A stretch of DNA of 64,000 nucleotides from Phycisphaerales bacterium (GCA_029260515.1 JAJDDC010000048.1:31671-95670); one strand, 5' to 3'. Shown: positions 30,345 through 49,739, counted from the first letter of the stretch. Notes: generated from the letters alone by a model not told the origin. Made by a program: numbers and translations.

Positions 30345-30498
30345 GACACCCTCCGATCGCTCGGCATACTCGCGGTCAGCCCCCACGCACCTGGGGCGCC
30401 GTCGGGATACCCATCATCGGGCCCAACGCCCGCAGTCCAAGTATATTGCCCCAAACGAAAACCCCCGCGTCGGTCGGACGCGGGGGCGGAATTCCAAG

Positions 30499-34505: not shown

Positions 34506-35033
34506 ATGCACAACGTCGAGTACAAAGCCGAGCTCCGCGACCCGCTCGTCGCCCGCGCCATCGCCAAGAAGATCGGCGCCACCCTCGACGCCACGCTCGA
34601 CCAGACCGACACCTACTTCCGCGTCACCACCGGGCGCCTGAAAAAACGAGAAACCACCGAGCAAGGCCACGGCCCCCTCCCCACCCAGTACATCTTCTAC
34701 GACCGCGCCGACATCGTCCGCCCCAAGCTTTCGCACTACACCCTCTACACCGAAGACGAGGCCCGAGAGCGCTACGGCCAGCGCCCACTCCCCACCGACA
34801 TCGTCGTCAAAAAACGCCGCGAGCTCTGGCTCGCGGGCACGGCACGAATCCACCTCGACCACGTCGAGAACCTCGGCCACTTCATCGAGTTCGAGGTCCC
34901 CATCCACCCCAAGAGCTCCGTCACCGCCGCCCGCGACAAGACCGAGCAGCTCAAGGCCCACTTCGCCCCCGCCCTCGGCGAACCCATCGCCCTCGGCTAC
35001 CGCGACCTGATCGCCGCCGACGAAGAAGGCTGA
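34506..35033 (+). CDS. CYTH-domain protein (class IV adenylate cyclase / CyaB-like)
   Basis: The N-terminal NVEYKAEL (ExExK-type signature), a size of ~175 aa, and HLDHVENLGHFIEFEV near the C-terminus are typical of CYTH/CyaB. Confidence 0.7.
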   Translation: MHNVEYKAELRDPLVARAIAKKIGATLDATLDQTDTYFRVTTGRLKKRETTEQGHGPLPTQYIFYDRADIVRPKLSHYTLYTEDEARERYGQRPLPTDIVVKKRRELWLAGTARIHLDHVENLGHFIEFEVPIHPKSSVTAARDKTEQLKAHFAPALGEPIALGYRDLIAADEEG

Positions 35034-36256
35034 GTCGGGGCGCCCACCTCGCGCCCCGTCGCCTGACCCACAAGCAGCCCGATCAGCACACTCATCACAA
35101 ACACGCACCAGTCCTTCTGCGCCGACAGATCGAACACAGACATCGCCAGCAGCGCGACCGTCGAGGCGAGCACGCCGAGGCTGATCCCGTCAGCACCCGC
35201 GTCCCGCCTTGCCCCCCGCCACGCCGTCACGAGCACGGCGCCGGCGAGTGCGCACATCGCCGCCAAGCCGAGGACGCCACGCTCGCCGAGGAACTCGAGG
35301 CACACGTTGTGCGCCCACGGGATCTCCGCGATCAGCGGCGTGTAGCCATCGGGCAGCCGCACCCGCGCCAGGTACCCCGGGTAGAACAGCCCATACGTGT
35401 GCGGCCCCTTGCCCACGATCGGCGCCTCCCGGAACATCTCCCACGCCACCAGCCACAACCCGAGCCGTCCCTCGGACTGCAGACTCAGCGTCTCGAGCAC
35501 GCGCCCGCGAACCCCGCCCGCGTCCACCGCCCACGCCGCGCCCCCCACCGCGGCGATCGCGCCAAGGACGACCCACCGCGACACCCCGCGCAGCCCGACG
35601 ATCGCGACCACGAGCCACGCGAGCACGACACCCCCCAACGCCGTGCGGCTCTGGGTCAGCGCCGCCGCCGCCAGCACGGGGACCCCGCCAAGCGTGAGCC
35701 CCGCCAGCCGCCACGCCCCACGCCGCCCGACGAACAGGCACAACAAGAACGGCAGGCACGCCGCCGCCAGCGCAAAGTCGTTCGGGTGCGGCAGGCTCCC
35801 CGGGTAGCGTCCACCCATCGGTCCCTGCCCCGACAGCACGCTCCGCCCCACCCGCCACTGCACGAGCACGTCCAACGAAACCACCGCCGCGACACTCGCC
35901 AGCCCCCCAACGATCATCCACAACGCCCGCGGGTGCGACACCGCGTGCGCGCTCGCGAACAGCAGCAGCACCCCGATCGACAACGGCGCCAGCCCCTGTG
36001 CACTCAGCGACCGATCGACCGAGAACGCCGTCGAGACCAGCTGACTCAGAATGAAGACACAGCACGCGGCGCCCATCACCGTCACCCGAAACGCCCTCGC
36101 CTCGTTCACCCGCCCCGCGACCGCCCCCACCGCGACAACAACCACGCCCGCCGTGAACATCCACGTCGGCGCCGCATCGCCAACCGCCATGAGCACGAGC
36201 AGCAGCGCCACCCCGCCGCCGGCGATCCAGGGCGTGAGCCGCCGCCACCTGTCCAT
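34997..36256 (-). CDS. O-antigen ligase (Wzy_C) family polytopic membrane protein
   Basis: Start is ATG 36256 (MDRWRRLTPW). It has about 10 hydrophobic helices, LTQSRTALGGVVLAWLV (the usual SR-containing loop context) and a large periplasmic loop. Its start shares one nucleotide with the stop of the upstream LVIVD gene (TGATG). Confidence 0.7.
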   Translation of the reverse strand: MDRWRRLTPWIAGGGVALLLVLMAVGDAAPTWMFTAGVVVVAVGAVAGRVNEARAFRVTVMGAACCVFILSQLVSTAFSVDRSLSAQGLAPLSIGVLLLFASAHAVSHPRALWMIVGGLASVAAVVSLDVLVQWRVGRSVLSGQGPMGGRYPGSLPHPNDFALAAACLPFLLCLFVGRRGAWRLAGLTLGGVPVLAAAALTQSRTALGGVVLAWLVVAIVGLRGVSRWVVLGAIAAVGGAAWAVDAGGVRGRVLETLSLQSEGRLGLWLVAWEMFREAPIVGKGPHTYGLFYPGYLARVRLPDGYTPLIAEIPWAHNVCLEFLGERGVLGLAAMCALAGAVLVTAWRGARRDAGADGISLGVLASTVALLAMSVFDLSAQKDWCVFVMSVLIGLLVGQATGREVGAPTQPSSSAAIRSR

Positions 36257-37533
36257 CACGTAGCCGACACCCGCGTCCGTCGGCGCCCACCACCCCCGCA
36301 CGGCGCCCCCAGCGCCGCGACCGCAACCGGCGCGACGGCCCACCCCCACACCTCCCCCGGCCTGTAGAGGTACCGCCCCCCCTCGGGTAAAGCCGAGTAA
36401 TACGGCGAGCACCTCTCGCACGCATCAAAGGCCTGAATGAACGCCAGAACGTCAGAGAAGTCGAACTCGCCTTCCGGTTCGGCGAGATCTGCCTCAGCCG
36501 CCCCGCTCCCGAACGCGATCAGGAATGCCATCGCATCGAAGGAGTCCAGCGCCCCCTGCGGCTCGGCCAGGTCCGCGTGCGCGCACGCAAGCGCCCGCGA
36601 GAGATCCAGCGTCCGCAAACCGTTCTCGAGTATATAGGCCACATCGCCCTGCGCGTGGACTCCATACGAGTACGAGATGCTGGCAGTGGCGCCGACTTCG
36701 ACAGGCCTCGTCGGATCACTCACGTCAAACACGCGCACCCCCGCCCCCAGGCTCGTGATACAAGCAAGCGAGCCGGACATCGACACACCCCACCCGAAGT
36801 CGCCCAACTCGAGCATACCGACCATCGCCGGCGCCGCCGGATTGCGGACGTCGAACACCTCGAAGACCCCCGGCGAACGAACGCAGACCACGCTAACCGA
36901 CACGGCCAAGTTTCCGCCTGATGTAGACGCCGAGCCCCTGATCATCGGCGCAGTCGGATCCATGACGTCCACCACCAGGAGCAAACCCGCTTCCGTTGTC
37001 ACGTACGCGAACGCCCCCTCGCACACGAGGTCCTGGACGGCGCCCTCGATCTCGAGCTCCCCGACGACCACCAGATCCCTCGGGTTGGTCACATCCAGCA
37101 CAAGCATGCCCGAGGCCGCCTCTACGCACACGACCGAGCCGTCAAGCACGAGGCCCAAGGCGCCGCTCGCGATATGGGTGCGGTGAAGAACCACCGGGTT
37201 GTCCGGATCGCTGATATCCACGGATTGCAGCCCCTCCCATACATCGGAATCCGATAGGAACGCGATCGTCCCGTCGATCGCGACGCCCAAAGATGAGTAC
37301 GGGGTCAGGACGAACGACAAGAAGTCCGGGTTCGCCGGGTCCGACACGTCGTAGATCAGCATTCCAATGGTGTCCGCCGCAACGCAAAGCACGCCATCAG
37401 ACACATCCGCCCCCTGCATATGTGTCCCGAAGACCGACCTCCCAAGCTGTGGAACGTCACACACCTGGGCGCAGCACACCGACGCGCCCCCCACGCACAC
37501 AAACGCAGCCAAGACGCTCACCCGCACACGCAT
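36256..37533 (-). CDS. LVIVD-repeat beta-propeller protein with dockerin-like module, CxxC and PEGGRYLYRP-TM-Arg tail (425 aa)
   Basis: Start is ATG 37533 with GGAGG upstream. Signal is MRVRVSVLAAFVCVGGASVCCAQ. It contains repeats such as LIYDVSDPANP, LQSVDISDPDNP, LVLDVTNPRDL, VVDVMDPTAP, FDVRNPAAP and VFDVSDPTRP. The C-terminal 109 aa are described in the repeat features. Confidence 0.8.
   Translation of the reverse strand: MRVRVSVLAAFVCVGGASVCCAQVCDVPQLGRSVFGTHMQGADVSDGVLCVAADTIGMLIYDVSDPANPDFLSFVLTPYSSLGVAIDGTIAFLSDSDVWEGLQSVDISDPDNPVVLHRTHIASGALGLVLDGSVVCVEAASGMLVLDVTNPRDLVVVGELEIEGAVQDLVCEGAFAYVTTEAGLLLVVDVMDPTAPMIRGSASTSGGNLAVSVSVVCVRSPGVFEVFDVRNPAAPAMVGMLELGDFGWGVSMSGSLACITSLGAGVRVFDVSDPTRPVEVGATASISYSYGVHAQGDVAYILENGLRTLDLSRALACAHADLAEPQGALDSFDAMAFLIAFGSGAAEADLAEPEGEFDFSDVLAFIQAFDACERCSPYYSALPEGGRYLYRPGEVWGWAVAPVAVAALGAPCGGGGRRRTRVSAT
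36409..36585 (-). repeat. dockerin-like double repeat, internal copy ending in CxxC
   Basis: CAHADLAEPQGALDSFDAMAFLIAFGSGAAEADLAEPEGEFDFSDVLAFIQAFDACERC, followed (36259-36408) by SPYYSALPEGGRYLYRPGEVWGWAVAPVAVAALGAPCGGGGRRRTRVSAT. Confidence 0.75.
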
Positions 37534-37574
37534 CACGCCTCCACACCCCCCGGCCGCCATCGCCAACACCCCCC

Positions 37575-38849
37575 TCACGCTCCCCGCCGGTCCCGCCGGA
37601 CAACGATGAGAGGCAGCCCGACCGCCGCCAACGCCGCTGTCACCGGCGCGTACCCGCCCACGCCCTCCGGGCGGTACAGGTACCGCCCACCCTCCGGCAC
37701 GACCGCGTACGGATTGCATGTATCGCACTCGTCGAACGCCCCGAGGAACGCACTCACGTCGGCGAGATCGAACACCCCTGCTGGCTCGGCCAGGTCCGCC
37801 GCGGCCTCCTCCGCCGCGAACGCCGCCACGAACCCCAGCACGTCGGAGTAATCCAAAGCCCCCGCCGGATCCGCGAAATCCGCACGCACGCACGCCATCG
37901 GGATCGACAGGTCCAGGCTCCATACCCGCCCGTCGGCGCCGGTGTAGGCGACCGCGCCGTCTACGGCGACCCGGCCCGCGAGCTCGAACGCCGACGTCGT
38001 GCCGACCTCGACCGGGTTCGTCGGATCGCTGATGTCGATCGCGCGGACGCCAGCACCCGGGCTCGTGATATACGCGACCGAGCCGGACAGCGTGACCGAC
38101 CCGGACTGGTGCATGTGGTCGATCGAGCCGAGCAACTCCGGATCCAGCGGGTCGCTCAGGTCGTAGAGCTGCAAGTATCCATCTGCCCGTAAGGCGAGCA
38201 GCTCACCTTCGATATCGAGGGTTCCCCGACGTTGCACCCGGGCATTCTCCACCACGACCGGGGCGCTCAGGTCCGTCAGGTCCAGTATCCGTATATTGCT
38301 GGTCATCCCGGACCGGTAGGACACGTACGCGTACTGTCCCGAGAGGGCCACGCCGTAGTTCGAGGAGATGAAAACGTTGCTGACATACGCCGGATGGCTC
38401 GGGTCGGCGAGATCGAAGATGCGGAGTCGGCCGGCGGATGAGCGCGTGCACGCGAACGTTCCCGAGGCGGAGATGCGCAGCTCCGAGCCACCGACCCCCG
38501 GTTCTACATGCACCTCGATCGGATCCGCCGGGTCGCTGAGATCGAAGACCTTCAGGTCGCCGCCCTGCCCCACATACGCGAGCGTCCCTCGTATCTCCAC
38601 GTACCACGTGTACCCGTTCGACGGCACCGATGACATGAGCCTCGGGTCCGTCGGATCGCTCACGTCGTACACCAACAACAGGCGCTCGTAAGTCGCCGCC
38701 AGACACAGCACATCCCCGGACACGGACGCCTTTGCGCTTCCCACTCCGTACGCGGCCTCCCCGATCACCGAGATGTCGCACACCTGCGCCCACGATCCCG
38801 ACCACACCCCGCCCACGCACACCAACGCGGTCAGCACCGGAAGCCTCAT
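37575..38849 (-). CDS. LVIVD-repeat beta-propeller protein, paralog of 36256..37533, same composite C-terminus (424 aa)
   Basis: Start is ATG 38849 with GGAGGAG upstream. Signal is MRLPVLTALVCVGGVWSGSWAQ. Repeats include LVYDVSDPTDP, KVFDLSDPADP, RIFDLADPSHP, ILDLTDLSAP, LYDLSDPLDP and AIDISDPTNP. Confidence 0.8.
   Translation of the reverse strand: MRLPVLTALVCVGGVWSGSWAQVCDISVIGEAAYGVGSAKASVSGDVLCLAATYERLLLVYDVSDPTDPRLMSSVPSNGYTWYVEIRGTLAYVGQGGDLKVFDLSDPADPIEVHVEPGVGGSELRISASGTFACTRSSAGRLRIFDLADPSHPAYVSNVFISSNYGVALSGQYAYVSYRSGMTSNIRILDLTDLSAPVVVENARVQRRGTLDIEGELLALRADGYLQLYDLSDPLDPELLGSIDHMHQSGSVTLSGSVAYITSPGAGVRAIDISDPTNPVEVGTTSAFELAGRVAVDGAVAYTGADGRVWSLDLSIPMACVRADFADPAGALDYSDVLGFVAAFAAEEAAADLAEPAGVFDLADVSAFLGAFDECDTCNPYAVVPEGGRYLYRPEGVGGYAPVTAALAAVGLPLIVVRRDRRGA
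37716..37892 (-). repeat. dockerin-like double repeat, internal copy ending in CxxC
   Basis: CVRADFADPAGALDYSDVLGFVAAFAAEEAAADLAEPAGVFDLADVSAFLGAFDECDTC, followed (37578-37715) by NPYAVVPEGGRYLYRPEGVGGYAPVTAALAAVGLPLIVVRRDRRGA. Confidence 0.75.
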
Positions 38850-39002
38850 GGGATCTCCTCCGTCCGCCATCCCCCCGAGGGTCGTGGAAGCCCACACTGT
38901 ACCAGAGGCGCCCTGCGCCACAAAGCCGCCGCATGTCCCCCCACGCAAGAACAGCCCCAAAACGCATCGAGGCCCCCGCTCCCACGGGGGCCTCCGACGC
39001 AA

Positions 39003-39075
39003 TGGGCAGGGGCGGACTTGAACCGCCGACACCCGCATTTTCAATGCGGTGCTCTACCAACTGAGCTACCTGCCC
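39003..39075 (-). tRNA. tRNA-Phe (GAA)
   Basis: The reverse complement is GGGCAGGTAGCTCAGTTGGTAGAGCACCGCATTGAAAATGCGGGTGTCGGCGGTTCAAGTCCGCCCCTGCCCA, a perfect cloverleaf with anticodon loop TTGAAAA. Confidence 0.95.
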
Positions 39076-39261
39076 TGCCGAGGCCCGTGCCCCGGGGACG
39101 ACAACAATACCTGACCCCCCCGCCCCGTCAACCCGCCCCGCGATGTCCTGTGCCCTTCCCCAAGGTCCGCAAACCCGGGCCGGGCCCGTAACCCTTGATC
39201 CGCCGCCCGGTGCGTGGACAATGAGCCTGCCGGGCCCCACCCCGAATCGAGAGAGACACCG

Positions 39262-40662
39262 ATGCGTTCCACCAGCGACACCGCCCTGATCGCCGCGATC
39301 CTCATCGCAATCAAGACACTCGTCGCCGCCGGGACCGCGGCCGCCCAGTGCGACGGCGGACTCCCCGACGCCCCCGACTGGGACTTCCAGCTCCAGTGCC
39401 GCTCATCGCTCGACGCCGGCATCGTCCCGTTCAACCTCCCCTTCCCCTCCTCGCTCTCGAGCCAGTACCTCGCCCTCGACCAGGACGCGGGCGTCGCCAT
39501 CCGCTATTTCTCCTCGGGCGCCCACACCGAGGGCGTCTTCTACGGCATCGACGCCGTCGGCTCCTCCATCATCCAGGTCTCCAGCGGTGACTCGGTCTAC
39601 TCCACCGACATCGACCTCAACGCGGGCATGCTCGCGATCGCCGACGGCCCCTTCGGCGCCGGCGGCGCCCACGTCTTCGACACCGCCGGCTCCGTCATCC
39701 AGAACTTCCCCGCCGGAGGGCCCCAGTCCCTCTCGGGCATCGGCTCGCCGTCCATGCTCGCCGACGGCGCCATCGCCTACCGCGCCGACTTCGGGTTCGA
39801 GGACGTCATCGCCATCGACGAGTTCGACGGCCCGGTGCGCACCCAGACCGTCCTCGCCTCCACCCTGGGCGACTATTCGTTCCTCTTCTCCCCAGCCGCA
39901 AACGACGCCCGCCAGGTCGTCGCCAACACGATCCCAAACGTGGGCCCGACGCGCCGCATCGTCCGCTTCGAGACCGACGGCTCGCCCACGACCGTTGCAC
40001 AGACGGGCGCGACCTTCAACGCTTTCGTCAACTCCACCGCCATCGCGTCCAACGGCTTCGTCGCCTTCACCGCCCGCCGCGCCGCAGACTCCATCTGGGC
40101 CGTCTACCTCTGGGACGGCGCCGCTCTCACCGAGATCGCCTCGGGCGCAGACCCCGACATCAGCAACGGCTCGCTCGCCAACTTCCCACCCGTCGTCAAC
40201 GCACTGGGCTGGGTCGCCTTCCGCGCCACCGACGCCGCCAACAACTCCACCGCCCTCTGGGTCGGCGACGGCGACACCCTTGTCAAGCTCCTCGAGTACG
40301 GCCAACTCGTGCCGACCGACCTCGGCGACCTGCCCGCCGGCTTCGACTTCGGCGGCGGCACCGGCAAGCAAACCATCAACGGCGTCATCGACATCAACGA
40401 CGCCGGCCAGGTCGGCGTCGCCTCCTTCTTCCGAAACGGCACCATCGGCGTCTACGTCGCCACCCCCAACATCGCAGTCCCCTGCAACCCCGTCATCGGC
40501 TACGCCGAACCCTGCGACGTCGCCGACTTCTCCGACGTCGTCGCCTTCCTCATCCTCTTCTCCGAGGGTGACCCCGCCGCAGACCTCGCGGCCCCCGAAG
40601 GCCAGTTCGACTTCTCCGACGTCATCGCATTCCTCACGTACTTCTCCAAAGGCTGCCCGTAA
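39262..40662 (+). CDS. secreted NxxGxxAF-type repeat protein with dockerin-like GCP module (466 aa)
   Basis: Start is ATG 39262 (MRSTSDTALIAAILIAIKTLVAAGTAAAQ). It contains repeats such as VNALGWVAFRA, ASNGFVAFTA, LADGAIAYRA and INDAGQVGVASF. It ends ...YFSKGCP. Confidence 0.75.
   Translation: MRSTSDTALIAAILIAIKTLVAAGTAAAQCDGGLPDAPDWDFQLQCRSSLDAGIVPFNLPFPSSLSSQYLALDQDAGVAIRYFSSGAHTEGVFYGIDAVGSSIIQVSSGDSVYSTDIDLNAGMLAIADGPFGAGGAHVFDTAGSVIQNFPAGGPQSLSGIGSPSMLADGAIAYRADFGFEDVIAIDEFDGPVRTQTVLASTLGDYSFLFSPAANDARQVVANTIPNVGPTRRIVRFETDGSPTTVAQTGATFNAFVNSTAIASNGFVAFTARRAADSIWAVYLWDGAALTEIASGADPDISNGSLANFPPVVNALGWVAFRATDAANNSTALWVGDGDTLVKLLEYGQLVPTDLGDLPAGFDFGGGTGKQTINGVIDINDAGQVGVASFFRNGTIGVYVATPNIAVPCNPVIGYAEPCDVADFSDVVAFLILFSEGDPAADLAAPEGQFDFSDVIAFLTYFSKGCP
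40483..40659 (+). repeat. dockerin-like Cys-bracketed double repeat (first repeat divergent)
   Basis: CNPVIGYAEPCDVADFSDVVAFLILFSEGDPAADLAAPEGQFDFSDVIAFLTYFSKGCP. Confidence 0.8.
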
Positions 40663-40698
40663 CACCCCAGCCCGACGCCGCCTCCCCAAGGACCACCC

Positions 40699-41760
40699 AT
40701 GCCCCGCCTCACCCCCGCCCTCCTCGCCGCCCTCACCGCCACCCCCGCGCTCGCGGCGGACAACTACGCCTTCGTCATCAACCAGGGCGCCAGCGCCGTC
40801 TCCGCCACCACGGCAATCACCGCCGCCTCCGACGGCTCGCTCATCGGTGACCACGACGCGGCCACAAACCCCGACGGGACACAGACCCGCCCGGGCCTCT
40901 TCGGCGGCTCGGGCAACAACGCCATCCCCGTCTCCATCGACTTCGACATCACGACCACAATCGACTCCGCCCCGACCGGCGGCTTCGCACTCGCGCTCGA
41001 CACCGACGCGCTCACGTTCACCATCGGCGACCTCGCCGCCGACCTGCTCTCGGGCGACACCGCCGACTCCGCACTCGAGGCCACCTTCCTCTGGAACTCA
41101 TTCAACACCATCAACCCCTCGGGTATCTTCATCGGCGGCCTCCCCATCTCCCTCCCCCTCTCCACAACGCAGCTCACCACGCTCACCATCGCCCAGTCCG
41201 GCCCGATGACCACCGCCGGCGTCGCCGTCGAGACCGACCCGGGCGTCTACACGCTCGTCGGCGCGATCCCAGCGACCATCACGCTCGCCGCCGATTCCGC
41301 AACGCTCCCCATCCCCGAGACACCTTTCGACGCGACGCTCCCCATCGCCGGCACGATCACTCTCGCGCCCGACGACACCGCGACGATCGAACTCACGCTC
41401 GACCTGGCGAACATCGTCCAGGACATCGACCTCTCGGGCGCCCCGCCCGTCGAGGACGTGCCCTTCCCCCTGCCCACACTCTCCGGGGACACCGCGAACG
41501 TCCTGCTCACCCTGCAGTTCTCGCTCGCGTCTATCGAGTCGTCGGGCGCGATCTCGATCGTCGCCGATGCGGCGCCATCCGGGTGCAACGCCGCGGACCT
41601 CGCCGAGCCATTCGACGTCATCGATTTCTCCGACGTCCTCGCGTTCCTGACCGCGTTCGGCGCCAGCGACGCGGCCGCCGACCTCGCCGACCCGGAGGGC
41701 GTCTTCGACTTCTCCGACGTCATTGCGTTCCTCTCCGCCTTCGGCGCCGGCTGCCCCTGA
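40699..41760 (+). CDS. secreted protein of unknown function with dockerin-like GCP module (353 aa)
   Basis: MPRLTPALLAALTATPALA signal. The body is Thr/Ala/Asp-rich with no recognised domain. It ends ...SAFGAGCP. Confidence 0.75.
   Translation: MPRLTPALLAALTATPALAADNYAFVINQGASAVSATTAITAASDGSLIGDHDAATNPDGTQTRPGLFGGSGNNAIPVSIDFDITTTIDSAPTGGFALALDTDALTFTIGDLAADLLSGDTADSALEATFLWNSFNTINPSGIFIGGLPISLPLSTTQLTTLTIAQSGPMTTAGVAVETDPGVYTLVGAIPATITLAADSATLPIPETPFDATLPIAGTITLAPDDTATIELTLDLANIVQDIDLSGAPPVEDVPFPLPTLSGDTANVLLTLQFSLASIESSGAISIVADAAPSGCNAADLAEPFDVIDFSDVLAFLTAFGASDAAADLADPEGVFDFSDVIAFLSAFGAGCP
41584..41757 (+). repeat. dockerin-like Cys-bracketed double repeat
   Basis: CNAADLAEPFDVIDFSDVLAFLTAFGASDAAADLADPEGVFDFSDVIAFLSAFGAGCP. 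Confidence 0.85.
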
Positions 41761-41881
41761 GGGCTGTTCGCCGCCCCGGACGCAACCCCACGCCCCCCGC
41801 CGACGTAGGGGCCAGTGTCTTTCTCTTTGGGCGTGGGTCGCGCCCGCCATCCCATCCAGGCACTCCCCGACGAGGTTCCCG

Positions 41882-43810
41882 ATGCCCACGAGCCGACGCT
41901 GCGCCATCCTCACCGCCGCCCTCACCGCCGCGATCACGGCTCCAGCCCTCGCGGCCCCCGTCAACACGCTCATCTCCGAGCCCGCGCCAAACGCCGCGCT
42001 CGACTACGCCCGCCGCTCCGCGATCAGCGCCATCGACACCGCGACGCTCGTATCCCTCGCCAACGCCCCACGCGCCGCGACCACGATCGAGCTCGACCTC
42101 CTCGGCGCCCCCGCATCGCTCACCACCCGCCGCGTCCAGCACCACGCCTCGGGCGCCGTCTCCATCTTCGCAGACTTCGCCGACAACCCCGACGCATCGG
42201 CTGTCATTACCACACTCGACGGATTCGTCTCCGCCCGCCTCGAGCACCCCACGCTCGGCGCGTTCACCATCGAGCCCACGCCCATGCGTGACGACGACGG
42301 CGCCCCGCTCCACCGCGTCAACGAGATCGACCCGGCCGGCTTCATGCCCTGCGCCACCAACTGGGCGCCCGCGAACGCCGGGTCGCCCGACGACACCGCC
42401 GCGCCACCCCGCGGCGTCCAGTTCGTCGACATGATGATGCTCTACACCCCCGCCGTCCGCAACACCCTCGGCGGCCACACCCCCGCCATCGTCTTCTGCC
42501 AGAACGCCATCGACCTTGCCAACGACGCCTACGACCTCTCTGGCATCACACAGGTCCAACTCCGCATGGTGCACGTCGAGCAAGTGGACTACGTCGAGTC
42601 GGGAAACACAGGCACGGACCTCACACGCCTGCGGAACTCGGGAGACGGCAACTTCGACCACATCCACACCACGCGCAACCAGGTCGGCGCCGACAACGTC
42701 GCGCTCATCGTCAACTTCGCCAACAACGCCTGCGGCCAGGCCGCCAGCCTCAACCCCGTCAACGCCAATCTCGCCTTCTCTGTCTCCGCCCGCGGCTGCG
42801 CGATCGGCAACATCACGTTCCCCCACGAGGTCGGCCACACCATGGGCTGCGCCCACGACCACCAGAACACCGGGGGCAGCTTCTACTCATACGCGTTCGG
42901 GCACCTGTTCCAGGACGGCAACGGCATCAACCGCCGCACCATCATGGGCGTCTCCTCCGGCTCGCGCATCCAACGCTTCTCCAACCCCGACGTCCTCTTC
43001 GTCGGCGTCCCCACCGGCGTCGCCTCCGGGTCCAACGCCGCCGACAACGCCCGCGCCCACGACAACTCCGCGAACGACATGTCCACCCACCGTGACGACT
43101 TCGGCTGCCTCCCGTTCGCCATTATCGGACAACCCGCGGACGAGGCCGCTTGCGTCGGCTCCGCCATAGACCTCTCTGTACAGGTCTTCGCCGAGGACAT
43201 CGACGAGGTCTCCTTCCAGTGGCGCAAGAACATCATCCCGATCCCCGGCGCCACCTCGCAGAGCCTCACGATCCCGTCCGCGGCCCTCTCCGACGCGGGC
43301 ATCTACGACGTCCTCGTCTCCAGCCCCTGCACCTCCTTCAACTCCGACATCGTCCAGGTCAGCGTGGACAACCCCACCTTCGATACCCAGCCCCAGTCCC
43401 AGACAGCGCAGCCCGGCGACGACGTCGTCTTCTCCGTCGTGTTCGCGATCCCCGATACCCAGATCTTCTGGCTCAAGAACGGCCAGCTCATCATCACCGC
43501 CACCAACACCGACACGCTCACACTCAACGACGTCACCGAGGCCGACGAGGCGACCTACACCGCCAACGCCGTCGCGCCCTGCGGCACGATCGTCTCCAAC
43601 GCCGCGACCCTGACCGTCGGCGCCCCCGCCGGCTGCAACGCCGCCGACCTCGCCGAGCCGTTCGACACGCTCGACTTCTCAGACGTCATCGCGTTCCTCT
43701 CGGGCTTCGCCGCGATGGAGCCCACCGCCGACCTCGCCGCTCCCCAGGGCGTGTTCGATTTCTCCGACGTCGTCGCGTTCCTCAGCGCCTTCGGCGCCGG
43801 CTGCCCCTGA
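41882..43810 (+). CDS. secreted metzincin (reprolysin/M12B-like) zinc metalloprotease with two Ig-like domains and dockerin-like GCP module (642 aa)
   Basis: Start is ATG 41882 (MPTSRRCAILTAALTAAITAPALA). FPHEVGHTMGCAHDH is an HExxHxxGxxH motif. Two I-set-like Ig repeats are present (SFQWRKNIIPIPGATSQSLTIPSAALSDAGIYDVLV; FWLKNGQLI...VTEADEATYTANA). Confidence 0.85.
   Translation: MPTSRRCAILTAALTAAITAPALAAPVNTLISEPAPNAALDYARRSAISAIDTATLVSLANAPRAATTIELDLLGAPASLTTRRVQHHASGAVSIFADFADNPDASAVITTLDGFVSARLEHPTLGAFTIEPTPMRDDDGAPLHRVNEIDPAGFMPCATNWAPANAGSPDDTAAPPRGVQFVDMMMLYTPAVRNTLGGHTPAIVFCQNAIDLANDAYDLSGITQVQLRMVHVEQVDYVESGNTGTDLTRLRNSGDGNFDHIHTTRNQVGADNVALIVNFANNACGQAASLNPVNANLAFSVSARGCAIGNITFPHEVGHTMGCAHDHQNTGGSFYSYAFGHLFQDGNGINRRTIMGVSSGSRIQRFSNPDVLFVGVPTGVASGSNAADNARAHDNSANDMSTHRDDFGCLPFAIIGQPADEAACVGSAIDLSVQVFAEDIDEVSFQWRKNIIPIPGATSQSLTIPSAALSDAGIYDVLVSSPCTSFNSDIVQVSVDNPTFDTQPQSQTAQPGDDVVFSVVFAIPDTQIFWLKNGQLIITATNTDTLTLNDVTEADEATYTANAVAPCGTIVSNAATLTVGAPAGCNAADLAEPFDTLDFSDVIAFLSGFAAMEPTADLAAPQGVFDFSDVVAFLSAFGAGCP
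43634..43807 (+). repeat. dockerin-like Cys-bracketed double repeat
   Basis: CNAADLAEPFDTLDFSDVIAFLSGFAAMEPTADLAAPQGVFDFSDVVAFLSAFGAGCP. Confidence 0.85.
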
Positions 43811-43933
43811 GCAACCCGCCCGCCCGCCCTTGACGCTCCAGCGCCGTTCCGCGACACTCGGGCTGCCGATCTCCTATGAACACGGAGGCGGCGGTACTGG
43901 TTCGCCCCGCGGCAGCCCCCAGAGGAGAGTCTG

Positions 43934-46915
43934 ATGACCCCCAAGGCCGTTCTCGCCGCCACCGCCACCCTTTCGGGCGGCGCGGTCTTCGCACTCGCCC
44001 TCACCTCGGCCACTCCCCGCGACGCCACGCCGCACCTCATCGCCCGCGGCCTCGTTGACGAGTTCGTGAACTGGGAGAACCCCCACGTCCACCCGCTGGA
44101 CATGACCCCAGACGCCTCCCGCCTCCTGGCCGTCAACACCGCCGACAACCGCCTCGAGATCTTCTCGCTCACCGGCGCCTCGCCCGCGATCGAGGCCACT
44201 GTCCCCGTCGGCCTCGACCCCGTCGCGGTCCGTGCACGGACCAACACCGAGGCCTGGGTCGTCAACCACATCTCCGACTCGGTCTCGATCGTGGACCTGA
44301 CGACCATGAACGTCGTCGCGACGATCCAGACCGCCGACGAACCCGCGGACGTGATCTTTGCCGGCGCCCCGCAGCGCGCCTTCGTCACCTGCTCGCAGGC
44401 AAACCTCGTTCAGGTCTTCGACCCCGCCACCCCCGGTGCGCCCATCGCCGAGATCGCCATCGAGGGCGAGGACCCCCGCGCCCTGGCCGTCAGCCCCGAC
44501 GGCGCCACCGTCTACGCCGCCATCTTCGAGTCAGGCAACGCGACCACCATCCTCGGCGGGGGCATCGCCGACAACAACACACTCGCCTTCCCCCCCAACG
44601 TCGCCTCCCACCCGCTCGGCCCGCACAACGGCGCCAACCCCCCGCCCAACGACGGCGCCGCCTTCAGCCCCCCCGAGAACGGCGCGAACCCCAACCCACC
44701 CCGCGTCGGCCTCATCGTCCGCCGCGACGCGCTGGGCAATTGGCGCGACGACACCGGCGCGGACTGGACCAACCTCGTCTCGGGCGACCTGGCCGCCCTC
44801 TCCGGGCGAATCCCGGGCTGGACGCTCGTGGACCACGACGTCGCCGTCATCGACGCCTCGTCGCTCGGCGTGTCCTACGCCACCTCGCTCATGAACACGA
44901 ACATGGCCATCGCCGTCAACCCCGTCAGCGCCGAGATCGCCGTCGTCGGTCTGGAGGCGACCAACGAAGTCCGCTTCGAGCCCATCGTCAACGGCCGCTT
45001 CGTCCGCGTCCTCGCCGCCCGCGTCGATCCCCTCGACACCGCCAACTCCACCACCACCGACCTCAACCCCCACCTCACCTACACGACGGGCCCCGACTTC
45101 ATCCCCGAACTCCAGTCCACCCGCGACCAGTCCGTCGGCGACCCCCGCGCCATCGTCTACTCCCCCGACGGCCTCACCGCCTACGTCGCGGGCATGGGCT
45201 CCAACAACGTCGCCGTCTTCGACGCCTCGCTCACCCGCGGCGCCCCAAGCTCGACCTTCGAGGTCGGCGAAGGCCCCACCGGCCTCGCCTACGACGACGC
45301 CCGCTCACGCCTCTACGTCATGAACAAGTTCGCCGGCTCCATCTCCGTCGTCGATCTCTCCGCGTCCGGCGACCCCACCCTCGAGATCCCCTTCTTCGAC
45401 CCCACCCCAGCATCCATCAAAACCGGGCGCAAGCACCTCTACGACACCCACGCCAACTCGGGCCTGGGCCAGGCCTCGTGCGCCTCGTGCCACATCGACG
45501 CGCGCACCGACCGCCTCGCCTGGGACCTGGGCGACCCCGCCGGCGACATGAAGGACTTCGAGGGCAACTGCCCCGACGGCGGCTGCACCGACTGGCACCC
45601 CATGAAGGGGCCCATGACCACCCAGACACTCCAGGACATCATCGCCAAGGAACCCCACCACTGGCGCGGCGACCGCACCGGCATCGAAGAGTTCAACGGC
45701 GCCTTCATCTCCCTCCTCGGCGACGACGACAACCTCACACCCGCCCAGATGCAGGAGTTCGAAGACTTCCTCGCCACCATCCACTTCCCGCCAAACCCCT
45801 TCCGCAACGCCGACAACTCCCTGCCGACCAACCTCCCCCTCGACGGGCACTACACCACCGGCCGCTTCGCCCCCGCCGGCCAACCCCTGCCCAACGGCAA
45901 CGCCGTCGCCGGCCTCAACGAGTACCGCTTCGGCAACCTCGACGCCCCCTTCCAGTGCGTCACCTGCCACACCCTCCCCACAGGCATGGGCGCCAACATC
46001 GACTTCCTGGGCCTCCCCCCCTTCGACCAGCTCCCCCCCGGGCCCGACGGCGAACTCCACCACGCCCTCGTCTCCCTCGACGGCTCCACCAACCGCTCGA
46101 TCAAAATCCCCCAGACCCGTTCCATCCACGAGAAGACCGGCTTCAACACCACCCAACTCCGCAACACCGCCGGCTTCGGCGTCCTCCACGACGGCTCCGT
46201 AGATTCCATCGAACGATTCGTCGCCGAGCCCGCATTCGCCGTCAGCTCCGACCAGGAGATCGCGAACATGACCGCCTTCATGCTCGCCTTCTCCGGCTCC
46301 GACCTCCCCGAGCCCCAGGGCGCCCTCGAGCCCCCCGGCCCCCCCAGCCTCGACACACACGCCGCCGTCGGCATGCAGACCACCCTCGACGGCTCGGAGT
46401 CCGGCGACCTCGCCCTCCTCACCACACTCAAGGACGAGGCCGACCTCACACGCATCGGCCTGATCGCCAAGGGCGTCTACCAGGGCGAGCACCGCGGCTT
46501 CACCTACCTCGGCGCCAACCTCTACCAGTCCGACCGCGCCGCACAGACCATCTCCCACGCCGCGCTCATCGCCGCCGCCGCACCGGGCGCACAGATCACC
46601 TTCACCGCCGTCCCCCTCGGCGCGCAGTTCCGCATCGGCATCGACCGCGACTCCGACCTCTTCTACGACTCCGACGAGCTCGACGCCTGCGCCGACCCCG
46701 CCGACCCCGCCTCCACACCGCTCAACAGCACCTGCGGCTGCGGCGCCGCCGACCTCGCCGAGCCCCTGGGCGTCCTCGATTTTTCCGACGTCCTGGCCTT
46801 CCTCACCGCGTTCGGAACCATGGACCCCGCCGCGGACCTCGCCGCCCCGACAGGCGTCTTCGACTTCTCCGACGTCCTGGCCTTCCTGACCGCCTTCGGC
46901 GCCGGCTGCCCATGA
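43934..46915 (+). CDS. secreted YVTN-type beta-propeller fused to a two-CxxCH (di-haem cytochrome c peroxidase-like) domain and dockerin-like GCP module (993 aa)
   Basis: GAGGAG RBS. YVTN-like repeats are present (LLAVNTADNRLEIFS, AWVVNHISDSVSIVD, AFVTCSQANLVQVFD, VYAAIFESGN, AYVAGMGSNNVAVFD, LYVMNKFAGSISVVD). Two haem-c motifs are CASCH (45479-45493) and CVTCH (45956-45970). Confidence 0.8.
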   Translation: MTPKAVLAATATLSGGAVFALALTSATPRDATPHLIARGLVDEFVNWENPHVHPLDMTPDASRLLAVNTADNRLEIFSLTGASPAIEATVPVGLDPVAVRARTNTEAWVVNHISDSVSIVDLTTMNVVATIQTADEPADVIFAGAPQRAFVTCSQANLVQVFDPATPGAPIAEIAIEGEDPRALAVSPDGATVYAAIFESGNATTILGGGIADNNTLAFPPNVASHPLGPHNGANPPPNDGAAFSPPENGANPNPPRVGLIVRRDALGNWRDDTGADWTNLVSGDLAALSGRIPGWTLVDHDVAVIDASSLGVSYATSLMNTNMAIAVNPVSAEIAVVGLEATNEVRFEPIVNGRFVRVLAARVDPLDTANSTTTDLNPHLTYTTGPDFIPELQSTRDQSVGDPRAIVYSPDGLTAYVAGMGSNNVAVFDASLTRGAPSSTFEVGEGPTGLAYDDARSRLYVMNKFAGSISVVDLSASGDPTLEIPFFDPTPASIKTGRKHLYDTHANSGLGQASCASCHIDARTDRLAWDLGDPAGDMKDFEGNCPDGGCTDWHPMKGPMTTQTLQDIIAKEPHHWRGDRTGIEEFNGAFISLLGDDDNLTPAQMQEFEDFLATIHFPPNPFRNADNSLPTNLPLDGHYTTGRFAPAGQPLPNGNAVAGLNEYRFGNLDAPFQCVTCHTLPTGMGANIDFLGLPPFDQLPPGPDGELHHALVSLDGSTNRSIKIPQTRSIHEKTGFNTTQLRNTAGFGVLHDGSVDSIERFVAEPAFAVSSDQEIANMTAFMLAFSGSDLPEPQGALEPPGPPSLDTHAAVGMQTTLDGSESGDLALLTTLKDEADLTRIGLIAKGVYQGEHRGFTYLGANLYQSDRAAQTISHAALIAAAAPGAQITFTAVPLGAQFRIGIDRDSDLFYDSDELDACADPADPASTPLNSTCGCGAADLAEPLGVLDFSDVLAFLTAFGTMDPAADLAAPTGVFDFSDVLAFLTAFGAGCP
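46739..46912 (+). repeat. dockerin-like Cys-bracketed double repeat
   Basis: CGAADLAEPLGVLDFSDVLAFLTAFGTMDPAADLAAPTGVFDFSDVLAFLTAFGAGCP. Confidence 0.85.
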
Positions 46916-46919
46916 TTCG

Positions 46920-46952
46920 TTGATTCAGACTTTATGCCGTATTGTGAATCAA
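46920..46952. promoter_or_regulatory. AT-rich inverted repeat upstream of 47021 gene (candidate operator/promoter)
   Basis: TTGATTCA (46920-46927), a 17-nt spacer, then TGAATCAA (46945-46952). It is preceded by a direct repeat TGATTCGT/TGATTCAG. This is one of the most AT-rich stretches I saw in an otherwise GC-rich window. Confidence 0.3.
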
Positions 46953-47020
46953 TTCCGCTCGAACCGTGCACCCCACGCGGTATCCTGAATACGACGCACC
47001 AGCACCCCGGGGGATTTGCC

Positions 47021-48328
47021 ATGACGACGCACCGTCTCGCATTCGCCGTCCTCCTCGCCACCGCCCCCGCCCCCGCCTCGCCCGACCTCATCGCCGGCGG
47101 CATCGACTCGGTCAACCACTACGGCGAGGTCGCCGGCGCCCACGCCTACTCGTTCGGCGCCACCGTCTGCAATGTTGGCTTCGACCCGACAACCTACAAC
47201 CACCTCACCAACCAACACCCCGTCATCGCCCAGCATCTCTACCGCATCGCGGACGGGCGTCTCGAGCAGATCGGCATGTCGTGGGCCTTCCACACATTCT
47301 TCGCGCTCGAGCAAGGCATCTGCGCCACATGCACCCCAGTCGGCGGCGGCTCCCTCGGCCCCGGCTGCGCGACCTCAGACGCCGCCGGCATCCTCGGCGG
47401 CCAGCCGCAACTCGGTCCCCGCTTCGAGATCAACGCCGCCACCGGCGCCTTCGACTTCCCCTTCTCCAATCCCGGCGGCGAACTCGGCGACATCATCTTC
47501 AAACGCGTCCAGGTCCCCACCAGCCTCCTCTCCCCCGACGCCACGTACATCGCCGAACTCCAGGTGCTCTCCCCCGAGGACCTCGGCGCCACCGCCACCA
47601 ACAACGCCTCCCACCGCACGGCCAATCTGCAGCCCAACGGAAGCCTCACGCTCTCGGGCGACACGCAGCGTGAACGCCCCGCGATCCTCGCATGGGCAGA
47701 CCTCGACCCCGACGTCGTCGTCCGGACCATCGACATCCCGGGCGACGGCCGCTTCCACGCCGCCGCCAAAGTCATCAACCAGGGCGACGGGACCTGGCGA
47801 TACCACTACGCCATCCACAACCTCAACTCGCACCGCGCCGCCAACGGCATCATCATCCCCGCCTTCGTCTTCCAGGTCACCGACACCGAGTTCCACGCGC
47901 CCCACTATCACTCGGGCTCCCCCGTGGACAACGTGCCGTGGGAGTTCACGCCCGGCGCAATCTCCGTCGCCTGGTTCGCCCCGGAGCACACCCCCGCGAA
48001 CGATCTCTCCGCCAACGCCCTCCGCTGGGGCACGACCTACACGTTCTCCATGACCGCCCCCGCCCCCCCGGTCGAGGCCGACGCCACCGTCTACCTCTTC
48101 CGCCCGGGCGCCGAAAACTCTTTCTCGGTCTCCCTGCCAGTCCCCGGCGCGCAGTGCCTCGCCGACCTCGCAGCGCCGTTCGGCCAACTCGATTTCTCCG
48201 ATGTCCTCGCGTTCCTCCTGGCGTTCGCCGCCGAGGATCCGGCCGCAGACCTCGGCGCCCCGACCGGGGTCTTCGATTTCTCAGACGTCACGGCCTTCCT
48301 CACGGCGTTCAGCGCGGGCTGCCCCTAG
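47021..48328 (+). CDS. secreted protein of unrecognised Cys/His-rich family with dockerin-like GCP module (435 aa), paralog A
   Basis: Start is ATG 47021 (MTTHRLAFAVLLATAPAPASP). It shares conserved blocks with the next gene (see findings). It ends ...AFSAGCP. Confidence 0.75.
   Translation: MTTHRLAFAVLLATAPAPASPDLIAGGIDSVNHYGEVAGAHAYSFGATVCNVGFDPTTYNHLTNQHPVIAQHLYRIADGRLEQIGMSWAFHTFFALEQGICATCTPVGGGSLGPGCATSDAAGILGGQPQLGPRFEINAATGAFDFPFSNPGGELGDIIFKRVQVPTSLLSPDATYIAELQVLSPEDLGATATNNASHRTANLQPNGSLTLSGDTQRERPAILAWADLDPDVVVRTIDIPGDGRFHAAAKVINQGDGTWRYHYAIHNLNSHRAANGIIIPAFVFQVTDTEFHAPHYHSGSPVDNVPWEFTPGAISVAWFAPEHTPANDLSANALRWGTTYTFSMTAPAPPVEADATVYLFRPGAENSFSVSLPVPGAQCLADLAAPFGQLDFSDVLAFLLAFAAEDPAADLGAPTGVFDFSDVTAFLTAFSAGCP
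48155..48325 (+). repeat. dockerin-like Cys-bracketed double repeat
   Basis: CLADLAAPFGQLDFSDVLAFLLAFAAEDPAADLGAPTGVFDFSDVTAFLTAFSAGCP. Confidence 0.85.
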
Positions 48329-48413
48329 AGCCCCCAACCACCGGTCCATTTCCACTCGGCCCGCGAGCCGCAGCGCGGTACGATGCCCCTGCACCCACAC
48401 GCAGGGGACCCCC

Positions 48414-49739
48414 ATGACCGCACGCCGCCTCACCGCCGCCGCCATCGCCCTCGCCGCCCCGGCAGCACTCGCCGGCCCCGACCTCATCACCGGCGAGATC
48501 TCGACCTCTGTCCACTACGGCCAGATCGACGCCGTCCACGCCTACGCGTTCGCAACCACCGCCTGCAACCTCGGCGACGCCGACATCAACTGGTTCATCG
48601 ATTCCCCCGCCCACCCCGTGACGATCGAGAACCTCTACCGCGTCCACGACGGCCACCTCGAACAGGTCGGCCTCTCGTTCGCCGCCCACACCGTCATCCC
48701 GCTCCAGAACAACCTCTGCTCGACCTGCATCCCCGCCGCCGGCTTCCAAAGCCTCGGCGCCGGCTGCTCCAACACCAACGCCGCCTCGATCATGGGCGCA
48801 CAGGCCTACCTCGGCTCCCGGTCCGAGATCAACGCCTCCACCGGCGCATTCCCGTTCCCCCACGACACCGCCGACGAGCCGCTCGGCGACCTCCTCAACC
48901 GCCGCCTCCAGGTCCCCGAATCGCTCCTGACCCCGGGAGACACGTACTTCATCGAGGTCCAGTACGTCGCCGCCGACGACGCCGACGCCGGCCTCGGCGC
49001 GAACAACGCTTCCTCGCGCACCGCGACCCTGAGCCCCGCGCTCACGTTCGCACCCACGGGCGACACCCACCGCCAGATCCCCGCCATCCTCGCTTGGGCC
49101 GACGCCGACCCCGACGTCGTCGTTGAAACCGTGGACATCCCGGGCGACGGCCGCTTTCACATCGCCGCCAAGGTCGTCAACCTGGGCGACGGCACGTGGC
49201 GCTACCACTACGCCATCCACAACCTCAACTCCCACCGCGCCGCCGCCAGCCTCTCCGTCCCCATCCGCGTCGAAACCGTCTCCGACCCCATCTTCCAAGC
49301 CCCCCTCTACCACTCCGAATCCCCCGTCAACAACGCCCCCTGGGCCTTCTGGATCGGCAACGGCGACGTCGCCTGGTTTACCGACGCCTACACCCCCGAG
49401 AACGAACTCTCCGCCAACGCCGTCCGCTGGGGCGCCATGTACACCTTCTCCATGACCACCCAGTCTGGCCCTATCACCGACGACGTCACCATCGGCCTCT
49501 TCCGCCCCGGCGCCGCCCCGGCTTCCTTCTCCGTCCCCCTCCCCACCCCGGGCCCACGGTTCTGTTCCGGCGCCGACATCGCCGAGCCCTTCGGCCAGCT
49601 CGACTTCTCCGACGTCATCGCCTTCCTCACCGCCTTCGCCCTGGGCCAGCCGATCGCCGACTACGCCGAGCCCTTCGGCCAGTTCGACTTCTCCGACGTC
49701 ATCGTCTTCCTCTCCGAGTTCGCCGAAGGCTGCCCCTAA
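48414..49739 (+). CDS. secreted protein of the same unrecognised family with dockerin-like GCP module (441 aa), paralog B
   Basis: Start is ATG 48414 (MTARRLTAAAIALAAPAALAGP). It is collinear with paralog A. It ends ...EFAEGCP. Confidence 0.75.
   Translation: MTARRLTAAAIALAAPAALAGPDLITGEISTSVHYGQIDAVHAYAFATTACNLGDADINWFIDSPAHPVTIENLYRVHDGHLEQVGLSFAAHTVIPLQNNLCSTCIPAAGFQSLGAGCSNTNAASIMGAQAYLGSRSEINASTGAFPFPHDTADEPLGDLLNRRLQVPESLLTPGDTYFIEVQYVAADDADAGLGANNASSRTATLSPALTFAPTGDTHRQIPAILAWADADPDVVVETVDIPGDGRFHIAAKVVNLGDGTWRYHYAIHNLNSHRAAASLSVPIRVETVSDPIFQAPLYHSESPVNNAPWAFWIGNGDVAWFTDAYTPENELSANAVRWGAMYTFSMTTQSGPITDDVTIGLFRPGAAPASFSVPLPTPGPRFCSGADIAEPFGQLDFSDVIAFLTAFALGQPIADYAEPFGQFDFSDVIVFLSEFAEGCP
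49563..49736 (+). repeat. dockerin-like Cys-bracketed double repeat
   Basis: CSGADIAEPFGQLDFSDVIAFLTAFALGQPIADYAEPFGQFDFSDVIVFLSEFAEGCP. Confidence 0.85.

Follow-up and report, generated by a model that had tools for sequence, protein, structure and literature searches.

A C-terminally extended, putatively membrane-tethered GC-type dockerin encoded beside a Wzy_C-family gene in Phycisphaerae

We analysed a stretch of 64,000 nucleotides from a Phycisphaerales bacterium (GCA_029260515.1 JAJDDC010000048.1:31671-95670; G+C ~69%), referred to below as the window, and focused on three tightly packed open reading frames (ORFs) on its minus strand, behind a tRNA-Phe gene and a hairpin. Two of these, paralogs A and B, encode LVIVD beta-propeller proteins, and the third encodes a polytopic membrane protein of the Wzy_C (O-antigen-ligase) family. 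Both paralogs carry a GC-type dockerin that does not end the protein and is followed by a conserved C-terminal extension, and proteins built in this way were found next to one Wzy_C subfamily wherever a neighbouring gene could be seen. Our leading but tentative reading is that such proteins are dedicated partners, probably acceptors, of the Wzy_C glycan transferase; this grading is for the partnership as a whole, and protein glycosylation itself takes perhaps two thirds of it. The parts are known families (LVIVD, dockerin_GC, Wzy_C). The tethered variant of dockerin_GC, a lineage-specific motif P-x-G-R-Y-[LF]-Y-[RH]-P and the conserved pairing with a Wzy_C subfamily appear to be undescribed so far; full-text literature searches found no paper naming a 'GC-type dockerin' and none on LVIVD proteins with Wzy_C.

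Internal dockerins and a conserved C-terminal extension

A preliminary description of this DNA had delimited both paralogs and quoted their C-termini; ORFs and termini were present exactly as given there, and public gene calls were equal to them in length. Pfam LVIVD (PF08309) matched A with 83.4 bits (E 6.7e-24) and B with 69.7 bits (E 1.3e-19), against a cutoff of 20.2. Paralog A consists of a signal peptide (MRLPVLTALVCVGGVWSGSWA, followed by QVCD), a seven-bladed LVIVD beta-propeller (about residues 22-315), a GC-type dockerin and a tail, and a signal-peptide-like segment was present in both A and B. The AlphaFold2 (AF2) model of A contained 28 strands in seven four-stranded blades, with pLDDT 75-95 over residues 22-320. 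A Foldseek search with this model returned only generic WD40/BamB-type propellers (E about 1e-12).

The NCBIfam model for the GC-type dockerin (NF041540, dockerin_GC; cutoff 29) matched inside both proteins, with 33.0 bits in A and 35.7 bits in B. The module ends at residue 373 of 424 in A and at residue 371 of 425 in B, and each protein runs on for ~50 residues more. The model and the translations thus confirmed the earlier statement that the double repeat is internal and that D-x-C-x-x-C-x-P-Y takes the place of the usual GCP end in both paralogs. The tail of A reads C-D-T-C-N-P-Y-AVV-PEGGRYLYRP-EGVGG-YAPVTAALAAVGLPLIVV-RRDRRGA, and that of B reads C-E-R-C-S-P-Y-YSAL-PEGGRYLYRP-GEV-WGWAVAPVAVAALGAPCGGGG-RRRTRVSAT. 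The succession of PEGGRYLYRP, hydrophobic stretch and Arg cluster, also noted earlier, is a real, selected tripartite C-terminal extension, as the following comparisons show.

The two paralogs are 40% identical overall (164/415 aligned positions), with 35% identity in the propeller and 52% in the C-terminal module, that is, dockerin plus tail. The longest identical run in their alignment is PEGGRYLYRP itself (10/10), and the next longest is only 6 residues. Four of the ten PEGGRYLYRP codons differ between A and B, all synonymously. That all ten residues were kept despite four synonymous codon changes argues for peptide-level selection on the motif and against recent gene conversion.

The core of the motif was also kept in the one ortholog found. 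The Wzy_C protein of the window has a 58% identical ortholog, P0110, whose gene on contig L031 is preceded 9 nt upstream by a gene for an LVIVD propeller, P0114; the LVIVD/Wzy_C gene pair is thus syntenic elsewhere. P0114 is 30% identical overall (25-30% to A and B in the propeller, 46% in the C-terminal module), and its tail reads ...FGDGC-YYYNT-C-PVA-GRYFYHP-DSFAEC-LPLPAAVVAAAVPFIGYI-RRRSAKA. Among A, B and P0114 the invariant positions include P-x-G-R-Y-x-Y-x-P, the Cys that closes the dockerin, a Tyr next to the second Cys and, in the tail, two Arg. The second Cys itself occurs in all three proteins, yet not in a single alignment column. We therefore define the core motif as P-x-G-R-Y-[LF]-Y-[RH]-P, which leaves out the 'PE' of the PEGGRYLYRP proposed at first. 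P0114 was discovered through its Wzy_C neighbour and was later the sole further tail match in an exhaustive profile search. A full-length homolog search had missed it, returning beyond the paralog only LVIVD propellers with 22-39% identity and other anchors, and a tail-only protein search gave no matches, a weak negative in that the query proteins were not recovered either. Both loci come from one sequencing run, SRR15505516.

Two other origins of the tail were considered and rejected. Stop-codon read-through junk, as seen in P0158 and P0242, was rejected on the conservation of the tail, its synonymous codon changes and its grammar of transmembrane (TM) helix and basic residues. The tail of B could also have been the 5' end of a longer Wzy_C ORF; third-position G+C is high in both frames here, and two differences between assemblies (see below) are synonymous in the Wzy_C frame. 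This was rejected on the conservation of the tail peptide with A and P0114 and on the alignment of the Wzy_C ATG with the start of the ortholog P0110.

How unusual the extension is can be judged against its class. The exhaustive HMMER search, run with a dockerin-plus-tail profile against 1.84 billion (1.84e9) representative proteins, gave 1,673 matches, and only three proteins carried the tail: A, B and P0114. Among the 147 best non-self dockerin_GC representatives, 139 have a Cys within the last three residues (126 as GCP), and TM tails occur only in P0114 and P0179, both of which adjoin Wzy_C. A, B, P0114 (39.8 bits) and the group of P0179 (36.1 bits) resemble the ordinary NF041540 class in scoring above the cutoff, in the double repeat A-D-L-A-E-P-x-G-x-x-D-x-x-D-V-x-x-F, in a Cys at the start of the module and in its final Cys. 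They differ in what follows: ordinary members mostly stop at the last Cys, whereas the tethered ones add ~50 residues, in which a second Cys and a Tyr-rich motif come before a TM helix and the basic tail. In all, we found six tethered proteins with an internal dockerin upstream of a membrane anchor, which bears out the earlier proposal that the module can precede such an anchor. The further claim, that it is a folded unit and not a terminal tag, agrees with the internal position in the six tethered proteins and with P0146 and P0208, where a second, more divergent dockerin-like module follows the first ...GCP and ends ...GCR or ...ACQ, so that tandem duplication is possible; however, the fold was not confidently predicted.

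GC-type dockerin proteins form a large class of secreted Phycisphaerae proteins (1,673 representative clusters) for which an annotation model is the only description. In the window, at least nine more proteins have the GCP end, which makes at least nine of about 45 genes, roughly one in five. Two of them lie outside the array listed in Table 1 (24636-26867, plus strand; 63000-63998, minus strand). The passengers of these proteins in the window include an MXAN_5453-like protein with NxxGxxAF repeats, a reprolysin-type M12 metalloprotease with immunoglobulin-like (Ig) domains and a lactonase-like propeller, and several have no Pfam match. A second, different kind of Ca-binding dockerin-like protein is encoded near the locus (29370-30413, minus strand). 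It has several EF-hand motifs, matches the type I dockerin weakly and is rich in Gly/Arg/Pro at its C-terminus.

Adjacency to one Wzy_C subfamily in two clades

The third gene of the window locus encodes a protein that matched Wzy_C (PF04932) with 43.8 bits (cutoff 31.7). A six-member alignment (A5) of its subfamily showed the invariant motifs S-L-P-H-P-N-D, S-R (R204), G-R-x-G (R264) and P-W-A-H-N (H316). Residues R215, R288 and H338 are essential in E. coli WaaL, with counterparts R224, R298 and H349 in N. meningitidis PglL (PMC3643930). R204, R264 and H316 appear to be of the kind needed in WaaL and PglL, the equivalence of the two Arg to WaaL R215 and R288 being presumed and not read from an alignment. 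A profile of the subfamily gave one significant match in the PDB, 9rmk ('Oligosaccharyltransferase', E 1.7e-4), over the H-N...L-A-E-x-G core, in which H316 aligns with the H-N motif of 9rmk; we take this as a weak hint. No WaaL chain in the PDB matched the profile at E<=10, and phmmer of the protein itself against the PDB gave no match. The protein scored far below the cutoff of the IctB model, and no NCBIfam model covers either the tail or this Wzy_C subfamily.

Other Wzy_C proteins at E<1e-10 formed only one second clade, comprising P0111, P0112 and P0113, to which a gene at locus L038, found by its context, also belongs. These clade-2 proteins are 65-68% identical to one another and 34-39% identical to the window protein. 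At three loci (P0112, P0113 and the L038 gene) the gene immediately adjoins, in convergent orientation, a gene for a tethered GC-dockerin protein of 338-350 aa that is not an LVIVD protein. At L038 the partner gene, that of P0179, and the Wzy_C gene overlap in convergent orientation, and a PMT gene precedes Wzy_C. In translation the clade-2 partner consists of a signal peptide, an unknown domain without Pfam match, a GC-type dockerin and a tail of the same grammar (C-x(n)-YY-C-Y, YA[LM]G-x-H, TM, RR[RK]). Two such tails, from partners of 348-350 aa, read ...DEC-DSKVEYY-C-YGYDMKFGEGEAAYAMGDHTM-LTAGIAVSGAALMLGFGSF-RRKNA and ...AAC-NQAPPPGYYYS-C-YTYGG...NPTYALGRHGT-LTAGIAVSGACLMLGFTAY-RRRHP. The alignment of tethered members (A6) has, in order, an invariant last dockerin Cys, 2-10 residues, a Tyr-flanked second Cys, a short spacer holding one more conserved Tyr, and finally the helix and RR[RK]. 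In the clade-2 partner family the C-terminal module is 56-59% identical and the passenger domain 30-37%; the module was thus better conserved than the passenger in every comparison made.

The clade-2 block was found in three Phycisphaerae lineages (L032 1-10355, L034 801-6505, L036, L038) and contains genes for RecR, a tyrosine phosphatase, a glycosyltransferase (GT), Wzy_C, the convergent tethered GC-dockerin protein and proteins ending in GCP. The GT directly upstream of the clade-2 Wzy_C is of GT4 type (Glyco_trans_1_2) or belongs to PMT/PMT_2. The PMT-like gene directly before Wzy_C (GT39-type protein O-mannosyltransferase family) is a further hint of periplasmic protein glycosylation. Upstream of the partner genes and on the same strand stand genes for three or four ordinary proteins ending in GCP, mirroring the array of the window. 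Taken together, this Wzy_C subfamily adjoins a tethered GC-dockerin protein in 5/5 loci with a visible neighbour (window, L031, L032/33, L034-36 and L038), and each of the two clades has its own passenger domain (LVIVD or unknown), gene orientation and flanking genes.

The Wzy_C protein search brought up no further subfamily member from the organism of the window, a result limited by the search method and by the completeness of the metagenome-assembled genome. On this basis the window Wzy_C gene would seem to be the counterpart of the clade-2 genes, and A and B would correspond to the P0179-type proteins.

Alternative readings of the tail and of the gene pair

The preliminary description had seen in the layout of the tail the grammar of PEP-CTERM/exosortase sorting signals. 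On that reading the tail would be a cleavable signal, a sortase-like transpeptidase would remove the helix and attach the protein, and Wzy_C would glycosylate it as an accessory step. The likeness to PEP-CTERM (TIGR02595 and relatives) lies in the tripartite arrangement of motif, hydrophobic helix and Arg cluster at the C-terminal end. The motif is, moreover, kept in P0114, and LVIVD propellers are 'choice-of-anchor' passengers seen with type IX secretion system (T9SS), GC-dockerin and true PEP-CTERM tails. Two other window proteins have generic TM-plus-basic C-tails, so that some C-terminal sorting system may exist. There is also an exosortase-associated Wzy_C family, TIGR03097, whose genome context connects it with proteins that end in a TM-plus-basic tail; it differs from the present case, in that the window protein (23.5 bits) and P0110 (47.2 bits) score far below its cutoff of 188.1 and have no exosortase context.

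The CTERM sorting models of NCBIfam were compared at E<=10 with four kinds of tail. None reached its cutoff, and the only match listed was that of Synerg-CTERM to tail A (9 bits vs 22.5). The positive control, another LVIVD protein (P0039, ending ...YVPEPGAIAMLGCGSAMVFALSSRRRRDRGA), carries a true PEP-CTERM and scored 20.2 bits on TIGR02595 (cutoff 16) as well as matching eleven PEP-CTERM-related families. The spacing is also different: P-E-G-G in A and B stands 10-15 residues before the helix and is replaced by P-V-A-G in P0114, and the motif as a whole lies 5-10 residues off the helix and does not abut it. No exosortase, sortase, rhombosortase or CPBP gene, and hence no sortase-like enzyme of the kind the earlier reading would have co-occur, was found in the window (Pfam, essentially all credible ORFs) or in the related loci. 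The window neighbours were housekeeping genes (LigA, CYTH, FolD, TatA, arginine decarboxylase, agmatinase and others) and GC-dockerin proteins.

The cargo range does not fit either. The window holds no other copy of the tail motif, and the three carriers among the 1.84e9 representatives are all orthologs or paralogs of one gene, which is not the pattern of a multi-cargo signal. Exact-motif DNA scans (E-G-G-R-Y-[LF]-Y-[RS]-P) over 185,579 GTDB species genomes and 241 million JGI metagenome records, which do not include the source genome, gave 11 and 18 matches, all in short spurious ORFs or unrelated proteins, as expected of chance matches. Finally, clade-2 partners of the same Wzy_C subfamily carry a different juxtamembrane motif, and the conserved neighbour here is Wzy_C. 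We consider a sorting signal of this kind very unlikely. For annotation, a tripartite C-terminal tail is insufficient to call a sortase-type signal, and the tail described here is not PEP-CTERM.

We favoured a partnership with Wzy_C over the exosortase reading because tail-type proteins adjoin one Wzy_C subfamily in five loci. Under this model A and B, beta-propeller proteins of a Phycisphaerae-like bacterium, would be exported by Sec and anchored at the C-terminus in type I (N-out/C-in) topology. Their four-part C-terminal module (GC-type dockerin, two-Cys-bracketed Tyr-rich segment, one TM helix, Arg cluster) would be a rare membrane-tethered variant of one normally ending the protein at G-C-P. 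The helix, with the Arg cluster on its inner side, would keep the module on the outer face of the cytoplasmic membrane and so near the periplasmic active site of Wzy_C; the enzyme would then move an undecaprenyl-pyrophosphate-linked glycan onto the module. Glycosylation is the most conjectural of these steps, and the candidate acceptor site is the disulfide-bracketed juxtamembrane segment with its Tyr/Ser/Thr. In the nearest variant the partnership would be non-catalytic, the protein serving as a cofactor of a polymerase or ligase, and here that variant is indistinguishable from the acceptor model.

Precedents for such a pairing exist among O-oligosaccharyltransferases (O-OTases) and their acceptors. 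Of 31 pglL homologs, 21 adjoin a pilin target (PMC3643930), the tfpM gene directly follows that of its cognate pilin, and sequons flanked by disulfides have been described in acceptors of the ComP type (PMC9829042). The locus described here resembles the PilA-TfpO, pilin-TfpM, ComP-PglS and PglL pairs in that a Wzy_C-family enzyme of 400-450 aa is encoded beside (here downstream of) a membrane-anchored exported protein, in the Cys pairs near the candidate site and in the invariant Arg/Arg/His of the enzyme. By analogy, the adjacent tethered GC-dockerin protein would be the acceptor of Wzy_C. It differs in that the partner is not a type IV pilin, that its helix anchor is C-terminal and not N-terminal, that the PglL_A and TfpM models are unmatched and that Tyr is conserved in place of Ser or Thr. 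If the model is right, the pattern of a glycan transferase encoded beside its partner protein extends beyond pilins.

Several observations weigh against this interpretation. WaaL and PglL are not separable by simple sequence comparison, nor is Wzy (PMC3643930). The window enzyme had no Pfam match to PglL_A (PF15864), TfpM (NF058641) matched P0110 only (15.4 bits vs a cutoff of 600), and the low TIGR03097 scores belong here also. A structure-based classification of the enzyme was tried and abandoned, with an AF2 model too poor (pLDDT 59) and an uninformative Foldseek search. The AF2 model of A is likewise not confident over residues 324-424, with pLDDT <50 in the C-terminal module, so that no structural argument is possible. 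The anchor of B is weak: the mean Kyte-Doolittle value over 15 residues is 1.71 in its Ala/Gly/Pro-rich segment, compared with 2.48 in A, a good TM candidate. An independent assembly of the locus (L001, Logan SRR15505516_3596) differs from the window at 2 of 4,445 nt, and both differences (36286-36310) fall in the hydrophobic tail of B (L408R, a possible L->R polymorphism, and G413V). The anchor of B may be degenerating or show real microdiversity, or the assembly may have erred in this G-rich stretch. Within the motif, strict conservation is confined to Gly, Arg, Tyr and Pro and does not extend to Ser or Thr. To our knowledge, Tyr O-glycosylation by Wzy_C enzymes occurs only in Gram-positive S-layer systems, and the acceptors of dedicated O-OTases that we know of are pilins and not propeller proteins. 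Finally, only two of the configurations are evolutionarily independent, synteny within a clade being inherited.

The pairing can also be read without any functional link. A and B would then be merely anchored propellers, Wzy_C their chance neighbour with an ordinary function as O-antigen ligase or polymerase, and the motif a structural element such as a stalk or a disulfide-stabilised linker. This is in keeping with an evidence base of a handful of metagenome-derived loci from one bacterial class, with the generic role of Wzy_C proteins as envelope enzymes and with an exact gene overlap that is not conserved (a 9-nt gap in L031, convergent genes in clade 2). We nevertheless regard such independence as unlikely, since the adjacency survives 34-39% identity between the Wzy_C clades, a change of orientation and a complete passenger swap between different flanking genes, and since both TM-tailed families among the 147 representatives adjoin Wzy_C.

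An alternative that keeps the link, and to which we also give only a minor chance, is that Wzy_C, with the GT or PMT of clade 2, makes by polymerisation or ligation a surface glycan to which GC-type dockerins bind. The tethered protein would in that case not be a substrate: it could act as a cofactor, for instance in priming, chain-length control or hand-over, or serve as the membrane receptor of other dockerin proteins. The pair does stand beside arrays of ordinary proteins ending in GCP in the window, L032, L034 and L038, with GT or PMT genes directly upstream of Wzy_C in clade 2; the dockerin part is conserved as well as the tail; and an LptD homolog in the window implies envelope glycans of the lipopolysaccharide type. 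However, with GC-dockerin genes this frequent in the window, a position next to them says little, and no GT is adjacent in the window or L031. Moreover, what is established for dockerins is binding to proteins, the cohesins, and not to glycans.

A broader form of the partnership reading is that the Wzy_C subfamily and its tethered partner are core machinery of the whole Phycisphaerae GC-type dockerin system, which has dozens of proteins ending in GCP per genome; we see this as a long shot. The enzyme might glycosylate dockerin modules, possibly on tyrosine, with the tethered protein as primary or priming acceptor, or it might make an envelope glycan or receptor by which the GCP proteins are kept on the cell. 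If true, proteins would here be anchored by a new pathway that depends on an enzyme of the O-antigen-ligase family and not on one of sortase type. The tethered variants and their pairing with Wzy_C give a first concrete, testable genetic handle on the GC-dockerin system.

Layout of the locus and other features of the window

The features of the locus are collected in Table 1. Independent public gene calls gave the same three proteins (P0001, P0002 and P0108), and third-position G+C tracks the frame of A, then that of B, then that of Wzy_C. Paralog B starts 41 nt downstream of A. The TGATG overlap between paralog B and the Wzy_C gene, already described earlier, was confirmed in the sequence: the TGA of B (36258-36256) shares its A with the Wzy_C ATG (36256-36254). 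This ATG aligns with the start of P0110 in an N-terminal alignment, and an alternative start, a GTG 45 nt upstream, was chosen by one gene caller. A terminator-like site was looked for at the A/B and B/Wzy_C junctions and none was found, which makes a three-gene operon plausible. Most likely, then, A, B and Wzy_C form one operon, and B and Wzy_C are most likely translationally coupled. At its other end the Wzy_C gene overlaps by 37 nt (34997-35033) with the 3' end of a convergent CYTH-domain gene (34506-35033, plus strand).

Table 1. Features of the LVIVD/Wzy_C locus and its immediate surroundings in the window
Feature	Position	Strand	Basis or remark
Wzy_C / O-antigen-ligase-family polytopic membrane protein, 419 aa	34997..36256	-	PF04932
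TGATG, paralog B stop / Wzy_C start	36254..36258	-	1-base overlap
Paralog B, 425 aa	36256..37533	-	architecture as A; public gene call P0002
B weak hydrophobic segment WGWAVAPVAVAALGAPCGGGG and basic tail RRRTRVSAT	36259..36348	-	Kyte-Doolittle
B PEGGRYLYRP motif (aa 383-392), after C-E-R-C-S-P-Y-Y	36358..36387	-	
B internal GC-type dockerin (aa 319-371)	36421..36579	-	NF041540
Paralog A, 424 aa	37575..38849	-	LVIVD propeller, dockerin and tail; public gene call P0001 identical
A predicted TM helix YAPVTAALAAVGLPLIVV (aa 400-417) and basic tail RRDRRGA	37578..37652	-	Kyte-Doolittle; helix and topology predicted
A PEGGRYLYRP motif (aa 385-394), after C-D-T-C-N-P-Y	37668..37697	-	
A internal GC-type dockerin (aa 320-373), ends ...FDEC, not ...GCP	37731..37892	-	NF041540; alignment A6
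Terminator-like GC-rich hairpin and T-run	38969..38994	-	after tRNA; sets tRNA apart from LVIVD operon
tRNA-Phe (GAA)	39003..39075	-	ARAGORN; directly upstream of LVIVD operon, context only
Array of six ordinary secreted GC-type dockerin proteins, all ending ...GCP, divergently transcribed	39214..49739	+	

In both clade-1 loci a tRNA gene directly precedes the cassette (at L031 1-30, where the contig starts with the 3' end of the tRNA, and as tRNA-Phe in the window). The two tRNAs are different, as their T-arms show, and the position may be a coincidence or may mark a cassette at tRNA-associated integration sites.

Elsewhere in the window, GC skew flips from about -0.33 to +0.33 (cumulative minimum) at about 52300-52500, inside an asparagine-synthase-like gene (50971-52815, minus strand). 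The skew is otherwise independent of gene orientation, and the flip therefore looks like a replication-related, origin-type polarity switch or an old inversion breakpoint; a search for DnaA boxes near it found nothing above chance. A lamin-tail-domain (LTD) protein (5725-6567, minus strand) ends in NYPAPAGLAVLGMGFMIGARRKRA, a tripartite tail below threshold for the MYXO-CTERM, XDP1 and LPXTG models, which is possibly another, unclassified sorting signal. Directly after a tRNA-Met gene (17902-17976), a gene at 17977-20208 (plus strand) encodes a large protein with Peptidase_S74, an endosialidase chaperone domain of the phage tail-spike-like kind. This gene may be a prophage or island remnant, and its product ends in a TM-plus-basic tail, ...WPLVALAGIGVLAVSRRKKESGNDNA.

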